Part shown: positions 26,466 to 28,942 of the stretch, one piece after another
Position numbering within the stretch: position 1 is the stretch's first letter
Layout of the letters: the number at the start of each line of letters is the position of its first letter
Source: Pasteurella multocida
GTDB lineage: Bacteria > Pseudomonadota > Gammaproteobacteria > Enterobacterales > Pasteurellaceae
NCBI RefSeq assembly: GCF_900187275.1
Contig: NZ_LT906458.1
Coordinates: forward strand, 1,110,001 to 1,142,000
Reading direction: 5' to 3'
Length of the DNA: 32,000 nt
Notes under the pieces: generated by a model
Told to the model about the DNA's origin: nothing
The model's input: only the letters and a program-made list of their open reading frames with translations
The model's database searches: none
Program-made: the position numbers and the translations under genes

Positions 26466-26915
26466 ATGTATAAGACAAATTCCAATATCCAATGGATTGG
26501 CACTGGCATCGGCCTACTTGGTTTACGTCTTTTTCTCGCTTGGGAATTTTTTGAATCGGGTAAAGAAAAATGGAAGGGCGAAAACTGGTTTATGGAAATA
26601 CAAGAAAGTTTTCCTTTCCCATTCAATGTCATCCCAAGCGATCTTAATTGGACATTGGCAATGGGGGCAGAACTCTTATTACCGTTCTTCCTCATTCTCG
26701 GCTTTTTCACTCGTTGTAGTGCATTAAGCCTGACCATCTTAACCGCTGTTGCTTGGTACAGCGTACATGCAGGGGCGGGTTATAACGTGTGTAATAATGG
26801 TTACAAAATGGCCTTAATTTATATCGTCACCTTGTTACCATTAATCACTCAAGGGGCAGGAATATTCTCTGTAGATCACTTACTACAGCGAAAATCCCCG
26901 ACCTTAAATCAATAA
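26466..26915 (+). CDS. DoxX-family integral membrane protein, first gene of the RiPP metallophore operon
   Basis: 149 aa with four hydrophobic segments. LLGLRLFLAWEFFESGKEK is a DoxX-like N-terminal motif, and the RBS is GAGG. Confidence 0.8.
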   Translation: MYKTNSNIQWIGTGIGLLGLRLFLAWEFFESGKEKWKGENWFMEIQESFPFPFNVIPSDLNWTLAMGAELLLPFFLILGFFTRCSALSLTILTAVAWYSVHAGAGYNVCNNGYKMALIYIVTLLPLITQGAGIFSVDHLLQRKSPTLNQ

Positions 26916-26957
26916 AAAAATGCGAAAGTATTTCATACATCATAGAGGAGATTAAAG

Positions 26958-27248
26958 ATGAAAAAATTGGCAACTTTAGCCGCATTAGCCGGTGCATTAA
27001 CCATGGCAGCAACAGCGCCTGCACAAGCAGAAATGAAATCAGCAGGGAAGGCTGAGCAATGTGTCGAAGGTAAATGCCTAAAAACCAAAGCGGCTGAAGG
27101 TAAATGTGGTGAAGGTAAATGTGGTGCACATGACCACAAAGCAAAAGCGGCAGAAGGTAAATGCGGTGAAGGCAAATGTGGTACACATGATCACAAAGCA
27201 AAAGCCGCTGAAGGTAAATGTGGCGAAGGAAAATGCGGTTCTAAATAA
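26958..27248 (+). CDS. hvfA: Secreted Cys-repeat RiPP precursor (HvfA/bufferin-like, EGKCG repeats)
   Basis: 96 aa with RBS GAGGAG. Signal peptide MKKLATLAALAGALTMAATAPAQA|E, then six EGKCG motifs plus EGKCL and EQCV. It lies immediately upstream of a DUF692/DUF2063 gene pair. Confidence 0.85.
   Translation: MKKLATLAALAGALTMAATAPAQAEMKSAGKAEQCVEGKCLKTKAAEGKCGEGKCGAHDHKAKAAEGKCGEGKCGTHDHKAKAAEGKCGEGKCGSK
27090..27239 (+). repeat. 57-bp coding tandem repeat (2.6 copies) encoding AAEGKCGEGKCG(A/T)HDHKAK
   Basis: Copies lie at 27090..27146, 27147..27203 and 27204..27239 (partial). The differences between copies are almost all synonymous third-position changes. Confidence 0.9.
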
Positions 27249-27260
27249 AGCACAACGATT

Positions 27261-27283
27261 GCTGGTGTAATGTTTACACCAGC
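27261..27283 (+). promoter_or_regulatory. Perfect 10-bp hairpin between the precursor and oxidase genes (partial terminator or mRNA-stabilising stem)
   Basis: gctggtgtaa-tgt-ttacaccagc, 13 nt after the hvfA stop. Only a weak T tract (gcttt) follows it. Confidence 0.5.
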
Positions 27284-27309
27284 GCTTTAATTAAAATAAT
27301 GGAGTCAAT

Positions 27310-28233
27310 ATGATGTTACAAGGTGCAGGCTTAGGGTATCGTCGTGATCTCGCTGAAGATTTTTTATTACTGCCCGACAACAGCGTTGTCAACTTTATGG
27401 AAGTGGCACCAGAAAATTGGATCAAAATGAGAGGGGCGGCGCGCTATAAATTTGATCAAGCGGCAGAACGATTTCCACTCGCCGTCCATGGCCTTTCACT
27501 CTCTTTAGGTGGACAGGCGCCTTTAGATAAAGCCTTATTACAGGGCATTAAAGCATTAATGACACAATATCAAGCTGTCTTTTTTTCTGAGCATTTAAGC
27601 TATTGTGAATGTGACGGACATCTTTATGATTTGCTCCCGATGCCATTTACAGAAGAAGCCGTAAAACATGTGGCACAGCGTATTCGTGAAGTACAAGATT
27701 TTCTGGGTATGCAAATTTCCTTAGAAAATACGTCCTATTATTTGCATTCACCAACCAGTACCATGAACGAAGTCGAATTTCTAAACGCCATAGCCCAAGA
27801 GGCTAACTGTGGTATTCACTTAGATGTCAATAATATTTATGTGAATGGTGTGAACCATGGCTTGCTCAATCCTTATGTTTTTTTAGATCATGTTGATGTT
27901 AGCCGTGTAAACTATATTCATATTGCAGGACACGATGAGGAACATGGCGCCGCAAATCCGATTTCCCCTTCTGATGAAGCCTTTAATAAAATAAAAGGAG
28001 AATATCGTCATCTCCCCCAATTATTAGTGGACACACATGGTGAGGCGGTAAAAGGTAATGTCTGGGATTTATTAGAATATGCTTATCAACGTTTACCGCA
28101 TATTCCACCAACATTACTTGAACGTGATTTTAATTTCCCTCCGTTTGCCGAGCTTTATGCTGAAGTCGAACATATTGCGCAACTGCAACAAAAACACGCT
28201 AAACTGACAGTGGAAAATCGCCATGCAGCCTAA
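27310..28233 (+). CDS. hvfB: DUF692 / MbnB-like multinuclear non-heme iron oxidase (MNIO), RiPP maturase
   Basis: 307 aa TIM-barrel-type protein. [60 protein letters not shown] and IHIAGH match the conserved DUF692 blocks. Confidence 0.88.
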
Positions 28234-28942
28234 ATCATCGAATCTTAAAGCAACCCAAGCTGCTCTAGCTAAAGCCGTACGTCTAGGGCATGCTGACCCT
28301 TTAAATGGTTATGCACCACAGCGTTTAGCCGTTTATGCTCGCTTAGTACGTAATAACACATTTGGGTTTATTGATCGCTGTTTTGTTGAAGCCCCAAATC
28401 ATCTTTCAGCAACAAGGTGGGCAGAAACGAAAGAACGTTTTATCCAAGAAGGGAAAGCAACATCCCCCTATTTCCAAGATATCGCGGGAGAATTTCTTAC
28501 CTTTTGTCAGACACAAACTGATTTCTCGGCAGACATTTTAGCTTTAATGGATTTTGAATATACTCAACTGCTTGCCGAGGTAGAAAAAACGAATCTTACT
28601 GATCCGATAGCGTGGGATGAGAGAACAGAGATGCAATTATCTCCTGCTGCTTTCCTCAAAAGTTATGATGTGGACTTTTTATCAAGTCACTTTAGTCAGC
28701 TTGAAAAAGCTGCATCGCATATCATTGTTTGGCGTAACCGACATTTTCAGGTAAAACAGCAAAAACTGTCCGAATTAGATTTTTGGTTACTGACTTACCT
28801 TACTGAGCAACCGACATCACTCTTACATCTCTCACAGGCATTAGCGGATCTCATCGCTGATCACGCTAGCTTACAGCCGATTTTGGCACAAGCGTGGACA
28901 AATTGGTTTGAAGCAGATGTCATCTGTCCAGTTACAGACTAA
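28223..28942 (+). CDS. hvfC: DUF2063-family partner protein of the MNIO (HvfC/MbnC-like, putative precursor-recognition subunit)
   Basis: 239 aa. The [21 protein letters not shown] block is typical of DUF2063. It overlaps hvfB by 11 nt. Confidence 0.75.

Follow-up and report, generated by a model that had tools for sequence, protein, structure and literature searches.

A probable hvfXABC (oxazolin) operon in Pasteurella multocida and its likely control by an adjacent stress sigma factor

We analysed a 32-kb stretch of Pasteurella multocida DNA (the window) and find that four genes on its + strand, at 26466-28942, are in all probability the P. multocida orthologue of the hvfXABC (oxazolin, 'captophorin') operon, with a mechanism that we carry over from relatives. 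By analogy with those relatives, the operon is predicted to make a secreted, Cys-modified, copper-binding peptide (oxazolin), and the stress sigma factor encoded beside it most likely controls hvfXABC in P. multocida. The operon is already described and already annotated, and its family, enzymes, chemistry and regulators have all been published. Nothing in it is categorically new; the NCBI annotation pipeline already recognises these genes, and the NCBI product name for the P. multocida precursor homologues is HvfA. Our literature search found no paper tying P. multocida to the Hvf/oxazolin system, and what we add is modest: a leader, a hairpin between hvfA and hvfB, and a variation in HvfA repeat number among P. 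multocida strains.

An important pathogen of animals, P. multocida is also zoonotic. It has an intact, invariant copy of the operon beside a probable controlling stress sigma factor, and the operon is a reasonable candidate for a virulence or copper/oxidant-defence locus in this species. In nontypeable Haemophilus influenzae (NTHi), oxazolin is a virulence factor.

Gene content and identity of the operon

The initial annotation described the unit as DoxX, a Sec-signal Cys-repeat precursor, a DUF692/MNIO enzyme and a DUF2063 partner, and read it as a RiPP metallophore operon of the HvfABC/oxazolin type. Pfam, NCBIfam and structure matches agree with this reading, and the open reading frames of hvfX, hvfA, hvfB and hvfC lie exactly where the four co-directional genes had been placed, on the + strand and all with ATG starts. 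The gap between hvfX and hvfA is 42 nt and that between hvfA and hvfB is 61 nt; hvfB and hvfC overlap by 11 nt, as had been proposed (hvfC starts at 28223 and hvfB ends at 28233), and this overlap is seen again in related Pasteurella-group loci. In five public genomes, gene callers find these four genes at unchanged lengths. All four proteins clear the curated NCBIfam equivalog cut-offs for HvfX, HvfA, HvfB and HvfC, and we encountered no sequence evidence contradicting the hvfXABC identity.

The hvfXABC operon of NTHi 86-028NP consists of these four genes in this order (NTHI1440, 1441, 1443 and 1444; PMC11252979). The loci returned by our genome scan included none from H. influenzae, and the comparison with NTHi is made by published description. 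Four hvf-type genes with doxX first are likewise found in Neisseria NMB2140-NMB2145 (doxX, precursor, DUF692, DUF2063 = NGO1945, σE and MseR).

The first gene of the operon (order X-A-B-C), hvfX (26466-26915, +), encodes a DoxX-family inner-membrane protein of 149 aa (PF07681, E=2.9e-23; NCBIfam NF050144, 142.6 bits against a cut-off of 80), whose three hydrophobic stretches are compatible with about four TM helices. The initial annotation had singled out the leading position of doxX in this unit; the gene does come first, but this is no local peculiarity, since the NTHi operon (NTHI1440 first) and NMB2140-2143 show the identical order. HvfX is probably not needed for Cys modification, because its equivalent in the Caulobacter bufferin is not required (PMC11626156).

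The second gene, hvfA (26958-27248, +), encodes the RiPP precursor of 96 aa, which is covered from residue 1 to 96 of 96 by NCBIfam NF050188 (163 bits against a cut-off of 95); a Pfam search with HvfA gave zero matches, DUF2282 included. The strong ribosome-binding site (RBS) ascribed to this gene is present as GAGGAG, 7 nt 5' of the ATG. Residues 1-24 (26958-27029) are signal-like, with an MKK start, basic and hydrophobic residues and AQA at the end. HvfA contains eight Cys, at positions 35, 40, 50, 55, 69, 74, 88 and 93: C35 and C40 form a CX4C pair, and the others fall in three exact AEGKCGEGKCG motifs (C50/55, C69/74 and C88/93), whose coding DNA is a 57-bp tandem array of 2.7 copies (27087-27239).

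The NTHi precursor NTHI1441 resembles HvfA in its 24-aa signal peptide, its CX4C pair (a C38-C43 disulfide), its three AEGKCGEGKCG repeats and its 8 Cys, and is 95 aa long as against 96 aa in P. multocida (PMC11252979). The initial annotation had already pointed to EGKCG motifs in the H. influenzae precursor. Five genomes carry an HvfA identical (100%) to the 96-aa form. Among strains the protein varies in length (96, 91, 78, 77 and 72 aa), with 57-bp repeats gained or lost in frame.

The third gene, hvfB (27310-28233, +), encodes an MNIO (formerly DUF692) of 307 aa. The profile-HMM check proposed for this frame was run, and it returned a DUF692/MNIO match (PF05114, E=1.6e-96) rather than none. 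The score with NCBIfam NF003818, 366.4 bits, exceeds the equivalog cut-off of 360 by a narrow margin. The alignment of HvfB with the Histophilus somni di-iron structure 3BWW (E=1.7e-153) is gap-free. Ligands were checked one by one for site 3 only, where HvfB keeps N175 and D241-x-H243; the site-3 ligands of NTHi HvfB are N175, D242 and H244, and mutating them abolishes activity (2026 preprint). The exact HvfB protein occurs in 1026 blocks of the assembly collection, with the same context in the five genomes shown.

The last gene, hvfC (28223-28942, +), encodes a protein of 239 aa with a DUF2063 N-domain and an RRE-like C-domain (PF09836, E=1.4e-16; PF22106 NGO1945_C, E=1.1e-14; NCBIfam NF050145, 173.1 bits against a cut-off of 142). 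It also matches the N. gonorrhoeae structure 3DEE (NGO1945) at E=4.2e-42.

Predicted product and its role

The mechanism that we propose for P. multocida is transferred, in all its steps, from relatives. Oxidative or thiol stress would make the 66-aa zinc-binding anti-sigma factor release the RpoE2-type ECF sigma factor, as shown in H. influenzae and Neisseria, and the sigma factor would read hvfX-A-B-C from a promoter at 26168-26197, as motif identity and conservation suggest. In the cytoplasm, the RRE-like domain of HvfC would bind the 96-aa HvfA, as shown for NTHi HvfC, and HvfB, relying on a mixed-valent Fe(II)/Fe(III) cluster and on O2, would carry out four-electron oxidations of the six motif Cys. 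These would be C50, C55, C69, C74, C88 and C93, converted to 5-thiooxazole heterocycles as shown for the NTHi proteins (biochemistry from PMC11252979, di-iron cofactor and 5-thiooxazoles from 2026 preprints). Modified HvfA would be exported through Sec, cut after AQA24 and hold a C35-C40 disulfide, and the mature peptide would bind Cu(I), as was shown with the NTHi proteins, at about one ion per heterocycle pair.

Such a peptide would most likely serve to buffer copper that is toxic to the cell, in the envelope or in the host environment, and would contribute to virulence. The same chemistry could instead yield a copper-scavenging chalkophore or a copper-independent host-cell invasion factor rather than a toxicity buffer. 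We consider this somewhat unlikely. The NTHi authors left both acquisition and protection possible and reported that epithelial invasion fell by 76% in the NTHI1441 knockout (PMC11252979), but the related bufferins protect from copper excess (PMC11626156), and induction by HOCl/H2O2, mediated by an oxidative-stress ECF sigma factor, fits defence better than nutrient scavenging. Moreover, no gene for an uptake receptor or transporter (TonB-dependent or MbnT-like) lies within or adjoining the unit, which also speaks against this alternative.

Sigma factor, promoter and RNA elements

An ECF sigma factor of the RpoE2/σE type (29210-29761, -; 183 aa) is recognised by PF04542, PF08281 and NCBIfam PRK12530 (312.9 bits against a cut-off of 264). 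The stop codon of its gene abuts the ATG of the gene for a small, cytoplasmic ZAS-type anti-sigma factor of 66 aa (29009-29209, -), a homologue of HrsE/MseR (NCBIfam NF052368 antisigmaE, 52.9 bits against a cut-off of 50). The ZAS motif, as defined in PMC7907618, is present as C4-x25-H30-x3-C34-x2-C37. The sigma gene is convergent with hvfXABC, an arrangement kept in the Pasteurella clade, and a bidirectional intrinsic terminator (28975-29001; 12-bp stem, T-runs on both strands) lies between the convergent hvfC and anti-sigma genes.

This arrangement differs among relatives. Loci from Neisseriaceae and Cardiobacteriaceae place the sigma gene 3' of hvfC on the same strand, an order published for NMB2140-2145 (PMC2893595). 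In Neisseria, which has the same type of ECF sigma and ZAS anti-sigma factor, the autoregulated operon itself ends with the sigma and anti-sigma genes (PMC2893595), whereas in P. multocida they form a separate convergent unit with no σE-type motif 5' of the sigma gene. A sigma/anti-sigma pair of this type is also linked to the NTHi operon. The doxX cluster of H. influenzae 2019 (C645_RS07455-07470) is numbered far from the rpoE2/msrAB region (dmt = C645_RS08420), whereas in P. multocida sigma and anti-sigma are immediately downstream, convergent, and share a terminator with hvfC.

The initial annotation held the local regulatory context to be uncharacterised, which does not stand in view of the relatives: in H. 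influenzae all four genes are RpoE2-dependent and HOCl-induced, with RpoE2/HrsE as regulators (PMC7907618), and in N. meningitidis all four hvf-type genes are under σE/MseR (PMC2893595; PMC3240639). In the window, we find an ECF (σE/RpoE2-type) promoter candidate 5' of hvfX (26168-26197, +), with the -35 element GTAAGAAAT (26168-26176), a 13-nt spacer and the -10 element CGACTAAT (26190-26197), which matches the Neisseria σE promoter consensus GTMAGBWTT-N12-13-CGTCTAAH (PMC2893595). Chance would give 0.02 matches to this consensus over the 32-kb window, and this is the only one present; a relaxed scan (at most one mismatch) gave two more hits, both intragenic, with about 1 expected, and none 5' of the sigma gene.

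Fifteen fetched loci carry the motif 5' of hvfX. A seven-species Pasteurella-group alignment shows an invariant core within flanking sequence that diverges, and the motif is kept also in genera without an adjacent qseBC or sigma gene. Directly 5' of the -35 element lies an A-rich tract (26144-26164, +), a block that stays A-rich across seven Pasteurella-group species and may function like an UP element; Neisseria σE promoters have an AT-rich upstream element too (PMC2893595). Since the Neisseria σE consensus also marks candidate hvfX promoters across Pasteurellaceae, it can be used as a search motif for the RpoE2 regulon.

The main control could also come from another input, such as the divergent QseBC-like two-component system or a leader element, in which case the σE-like motif would not be a working promoter. 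The candidate promoter does lie about 298 nt 5' of the hvfX ATG, as against 55-130 nt in relatives; a conserved palindrome sits in the leader just 5' of the hvfX RBS; and qseBC-hvf synteny is kept within the Pasteurella clade. This possibility nevertheless appears distinctly unlikely to us, given that the σE-type motif is unique in the window, invariant across species amid diverging flanks and present even where neither qseBC nor the sigma gene adjoins, that RpoE2 dependence has been shown in H. influenzae (PMC7907618), and that a sigma-70 scan returned zero candidates in the intergenic region 5' of hvfX. Functional coupling with the divergent qseBC-like genes was set aside, as the synteny is found only in the Pasteurella clade. 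Control by the adjacent sigma factor is the reading that we retain.

The putative 5' leader from the promoter to hvfX (26198-26465, +; about 263 nt) is longer than in relatives, the NTHi comparison included. A second, decayed copy of the promoter (26299-26328) lies within it and aligns with an intact second motif of Pasteurella sp. L007 (position 2891); in P. canis and P. oralis, two motifs are intact and the leader is short. No direct repeats were found in the hvfX upstream region, and it is therefore the cross-species alignment that carries the idea of a duplicated promoter module. Directly 5' of the hvfX RBS, an inverted-repeat search identified the palindrome or hairpin TTACAAG-N10-CTTGTAA (26425-26448, +), which in L007 shows one compensatory change (GACAAG/CTTGTC).

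An Rfam search of 25900-29900 (E<=1) gave no credible match in the leader or operon. A hit to the HrrF sRNA near 29836-29995 was rejected, as it scores 29 bits against a gathering score of 77 and overlaps a genuine tRNA-Leu. Two small leader ORFs (26229-26366 and 26308-26448) are treated as spurious: compared with Taxon 45, they show compensating 1-nt indels in mid-ORF and not codon-wise substitution.

It is conceivable, if rather unlikely, that the P. multocida lineage has a regulatory layer of its own, made up of the long leader with duplicated, partly decayed σE-promoter modules, the palindrome abutting the RBS, and the convergent sigma/anti-sigma genes with a shared terminator, and maybe responding to a second input (copper, QseBC or an RNA switch). 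Within the same scenario, HvfA repeat changes might tune copper capacity or surface antigenicity.

In the hvfA-hvfB spacer, a terminator-like scan and folding (about -13.7 kcal/mol) identified the hairpin GCTGGTGTAA-tgt-TTACACCAGC, followed by GCTTTAATT (27261-27283, +). Its 10-bp stem is kept in the related loci of Taxon 45/46, P. canis, P. oralis, [H.] felis, Mesocricetibacter, A. ureae and a Haemophilus MAG, with loops that vary and a T-run that is often present; H. somni and Canicola have another hairpin at the corresponding site. We regard it as a candidate partial terminator or RNA stabiliser, which probably raises the precursor:maturase ratio. A sigma-70 hit in this spacer (27273-27300) was discarded, the scan hits overall being fewer than in shuffles.

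Heterocycle chemistry and relation to other MNIO systems

The oxazolone-thioamide chemistry named in the initial annotation corresponds to the 2024 assignment for NTHi HvfA (PMC11252979) and has been superseded. In a 2026 preprint the same group compared oxazolin directly with methanobactin and then reassigned its six modifications as 5-thiooxazoles (bioRxiv 10.64898/2026.06.05.730506), an assignment used again in a later preprint (10.64898/2026.07.17.739211). Oxazolin therefore groups with the bufferins and not with methanobactin. That methanobactin-type oxazolone/thioamide pairs are installed here instead is highly improbable: this original assignment persists in NCBIfam and NCBI product names and is still listed in a 2025 survey, but all six modifications were reassigned by the laboratory that had made it, the EGKCG-precursor MNIOs cluster with bufferin enzymes and not with MbnB (2025 survey), and HvfB scores only 39.7 bits with the MbnB equivalog TIGR04159 (cut-off 325), as against 252 with that of BufB.

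With 5-thiooxazoles as the predicted modification, the resemblance to methanobactin MbnABC is that an MNIO-family enzyme and its partner oxidise Cys of a ribosomal peptide to Cu(I)-binding heterocycles. Methanobactin chemistry is oxazolone/thioamide, in contrast to the 5-thiooxazole of oxazolin (10.64898/2026.06.05.730506). Its precursor has a leader peptide, whereas HvfA has a signal-type N-terminus and matches the HvfA family, not MbnA. It also has dedicated transport genes, which the P. multocida unit lacks. The MbnB structure 7DZ9 matches HvfB at E=6e-4 only, and HvfC gave no match to the MbnC family in Pfam and NCBIfam at E<=0.01.

The bufferins (Caulobacter vibrioides buf1ABCD and buf2; PMC11626156) share with the P. 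multocida operon a Sec-signal precursor, an MNIO, a DUF2063 partner and an optional DoxX, and they share with oxazolin the formation of 5-thiooxazoles from Cys, copper binding and ECF sigma control. They are a sister family with the same chemistry, and the P. multocida operon lies outside it by both enzyme and precursor: HvfB scores 252.3 bits with the BufB equivalog NF050167, below the cut-off of 310, and bufferin precursors belong to DUF2282 or 6/12-Cys families, whereas HvfA has EGKCG repeats. In addition, DoxX comes last in Caulobacter buf1ABCD and first in P. multocida, and the bufferin regulators are SigF and the membrane anti-sigma factor NrsF (PMC11626156), whereas P. multocida has a ZAS peptide.

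Identity of the hvfXABC operon

The four genes of the operon at 26466-28942 lie on the forward strand and all begin with ATG: hvfX (26466-26915, 149 aa), hvfA (26958-27248, 96 aa), hvfB (27310-28233, 307 aa) and hvfC (28223-28942, 239 aa). Spacers of 42 nt and 61 nt separate hvfX from hvfA and hvfA from hvfB, hvfB and hvfC overlap by 11 nt, and a GAGGAG Shine-Dalgarno sequence stands 7 nt 5' of the hvfA ATG. This layout, including the overlap, agrees exactly with the initial annotation, and independent gene calls for five public genomes reproduce all four genes and their lengths.

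The initial annotation had also identified the operon as one of the HvfABC/oxazolin type. This proves correct, as all four products score above the cut-offs of the curated NCBIfam Hvf equivalogs (HvfX, 142.6 bits against 80; HvfA, 163 against 95, over residues 1-96 of 96; HvfB, 366.4 against 360; HvfC, 173.1 against 142). HvfB does not reach the sister equivalogs BufB (252 bits, cut-off 310) and MbnB (39.7 bits, cut-off 325). The reading had been staked on a DUF692/MNIO profile match over 27310-28233, and such a match was found with PF05114 (MbnB_TglH_ChrH, the MNIO family once named DUF692; E=1.6e-96). In the same Pfam search HvfX matches DoxX (PF07681, E=2.9e-23), HvfC matches DUF2063 together with the NGO1945 C-terminal domain, and HvfA gave no match.

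HvfB and the crystal structure 3BWW, a DUF692 protein of Histophilus somni, give a gap-free alignment (E=1.7e-153). 3BWW contains a di-iron cluster and shares 72% identity with HvfB of nontypeable Haemophilus influenzae (NTHi) (2026 preprint). P. multocida HvfB retains N175 and a D241-x-H243 motif, the counterparts of N175, D242 and H244 in the NTHi enzyme, site-3 ligands whose substitution abolishes activity (2026 preprint). For HvfC the match is to NGO1945 of N. gonorrhoeae (structure 3DEE).

The initial annotation rightly observed that doxX is the first gene but remarked on this order as a departure. It is the norm in the hvf family, because the NTHi operon runs NTHI1440 (DoxX), 1441 (HvfA), 1443 (MNIO) and 1444 (DUF2063) (PMC11252979); the sole contrast is Caulobacter buf1ABCD, where DoxX comes last and is dispensable for both modification and copper protection (PMC11626156).

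Many complete genomes (2.3-2.8 Mb, CP003022.1 among them) encode this exact HvfB protein, in an unchanged context (five genomes shown). The closest HvfB from outside P. multocida belongs to Bisgaard Taxon 45 (96% identity); next in line, at 86-89%, are those of Pasteurella sp., Taxon 46, P. canis and P. oralis. HvfA homologues are labelled Pasteurella multocida, and some are already named 'oxazolone/thioamide-modified RiPP metallophore HvfA' by NCBI and UniRef; the literature searched yielded no paper joining P. multocida and the hvf system. The P. multocida operon is thus an orthologue within a recognised and annotated family, already known and not a discovery.

The HvfA precursor and its modification

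The N-terminus of HvfA is basic and hydrophobic and ends in AQA at residue 24, after which come a C35-x4-C40 pair and three exact copies of AEGKCGEGKCG, with cysteines at 50, 55, 69, 74, 88 and 93. The NTHi precursor NTHI1441 is built in the same way, with 95 aa, a 24-residue signal peptide, eight cysteines, a C38-C43 disulfide and three AEGKCGEGKCG motifs (PMC11252979). In P. multocida the coding sequence for the motifs is a 57-bp tandem array at 27087-27239. HvfA variants of 91, 78, 77, 72 and 53 aa occur in other P. multocida assemblies, where whole or half EGKCG repeat units have been lost in frame (database proteins P0001, P0002, P0004, P0005, P0019 and P0121). Their sequences suggest a repeat-slippage polymorphism that would alter the number of copper-binding heterocycles. 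It is in this polymorphism, and in a lineage-specific leader upstream of hvfX, that the small residual interest of the locus lies.

In NTHi, HvfC binds HvfA, and HvfB and HvfC together perform six four-electron cysteine oxidations; the precursor leaves through Sec and the product, oxazolin, binds Cu(I) (Manley et al., PMC11252979). [quoted passage not shown] The oxazolone-thioamide chemistry proposed in the initial annotation is outdated, because the original group revised its assignment in 2026 and now describes the six modifications as 5-thiooxazole, no longer as oxazolone/thioamide (preprints 10.64898/2026.06.05.730506, 10.64898/2026.07.17.739211); database names still carry the old label.

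Sigma factor, putative promoter and putative leader

Directly downstream of hvfC, and convergent with it, a sigma/anti-sigma gene pair lies on the reverse strand. It consists of an ECF sigma gene (29210-29761; PRK12530, 312.9 bits, cut-off 264) and a gene for a 66-aa anti-sigma factor with the arrangement C4-x25-H30-x3-C34-x2-C37 (29009-29209), and is homologous to the pairs known from relatives. A bidirectional terminator (28975-29001) separates this pair from hvfXABC. The regulatory context, taken at first to be uncharacterised, has published precedents. In H. influenzae all four genes of the doxX cluster are induced by HOCl in strict dependence on RpoE2, which is restrained by HrsE, a 67-aa anti-sigma factor of the zinc-binding (ZAS) type (PMC7907618). 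In N. meningitidis the counterparts of the four hvf genes share one operon with σE and its anti-sigma factor MseR (PMC2893595, PMC3240639).

We based a promoter scan on the published Neisseria σE consensus GTMAGBWTT-N12-13-CGTCTAAH (PMC2893595). Across the 32-kb window, the pattern GTAAG-N16-17-CGNCTAA is matched once, on the forward strand at 26168-26196, in the intergenic region 5' of hvfX; 0.02 matches would be expected by chance. A scan with relaxed criteria turned up no further credible match, and the region 5' of the sigma gene likewise had none. The motif also precedes hvfX in 15 fetched loci, among them loci from genera in which the sigma gene lies elsewhere, for instance Histophilus somni and Canicola; in these two the -10 element reads CGTCTAA, as in the Neisseria consensus. 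When seven Pasteurella-group species are aligned, the TTGTAAG…TCGACTAAT block and the A-rich tract before it are invariant and the flanks divergent. This is good comparative evidence for a putative RpoE2-type promoter of hvfX at 26168-26197.

Between the motif and the hvfX ATG lie 298 nt in both P. multocida and Taxon 45, and this distance implies a putative leader of about 263 nt (26198-26465), unusually long in comparison with related genera. The corresponding interval is 55-130 nt in species such as P. canis, P. oralis and H. somni. Within it, 26299-26328 aligns with a second, intact σE-type motif of Pasteurella sp. (locus L007), and an intact second copy is also found in P. canis and P. 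oralis. The segment looks like a decayed second promoter copy. A conserved palindrome, TTACAAG-N10-CTTGTAA (26425-26448), abuts the hvfX ribosome-binding site, and in L007 it carries a single compensatory change; an Rfam search of the leader gave no match. In the hvfA-hvfB spacer, a hairpin with a 10-bp stem (GCTGGTGTAA…TTACACCAGC, 27261-27283) is conserved in most Pasteurellaceae, often with a T-run 3' of the stem. It is plausibly a partial terminator (attenuator) or an RNA stabiliser, favouring the precursor over the enzymes.

Proposed role and genomic surroundings

Under stress the sigma factor would be freed from its ZAS partner, as shown in relatives, and we infer that transcription then initiates at 26168-26197. 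By analogy with what has been shown for NTHi, HvfC would present HvfA to HvfB, and this enzyme, with O2 and a diiron(II/III) cluster, would turn the six cysteines of the motifs into 5-thiooxazoles. Export would proceed via Sec, the signal would be cleaved off after residue 24, and C35 and C40 would form a disulfide, steps shown or predicted for NTHi. The product would bind about one Cu(I) ion per heterocycle pair, as shown there. Physiologically, it most likely serves to buffer copper and oxidant stress in the envelope in the course of an infection. The less probable alternatives, copper scavenging and direct participation in host-cell invasion, are still entertained for NTHi itself (PMC11252979).

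On its upstream side hvfX is divergent from a QseC/QseB-like two-component system on the reverse strand (23958-26034). QseC lies above its equivalog cut-off (549 against 475 bits) and QseB below (324 against 345); the longest qseB ORF, from a TTG, has 238 aa, as against 223 aa in public gene calls. The qseBC-hvf synteny is confined to the Pasteurella clade.

On the other side, secG and the ECF sigma gene are separated by a tRNA-Leu(GAG) gene (29883-29968, reverse strand), which has a terminator-like hairpin of its own (29837-29869). A weak Rfam hit to HrrF, a Haemophilus iron-responsive sRNA (29836-29995, reverse strand), overlaps the tRNA and terminator; at 29 bits against a gathering threshold of 77, this hit is in all likelihood spurious. 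In some P. multocida genomes (loci L001, L004 and L005) prophage genes (KilA-N, tail fibre/GpJ-like) replace secG and topB at this position, which would fit a phage attachment site at the tRNA.
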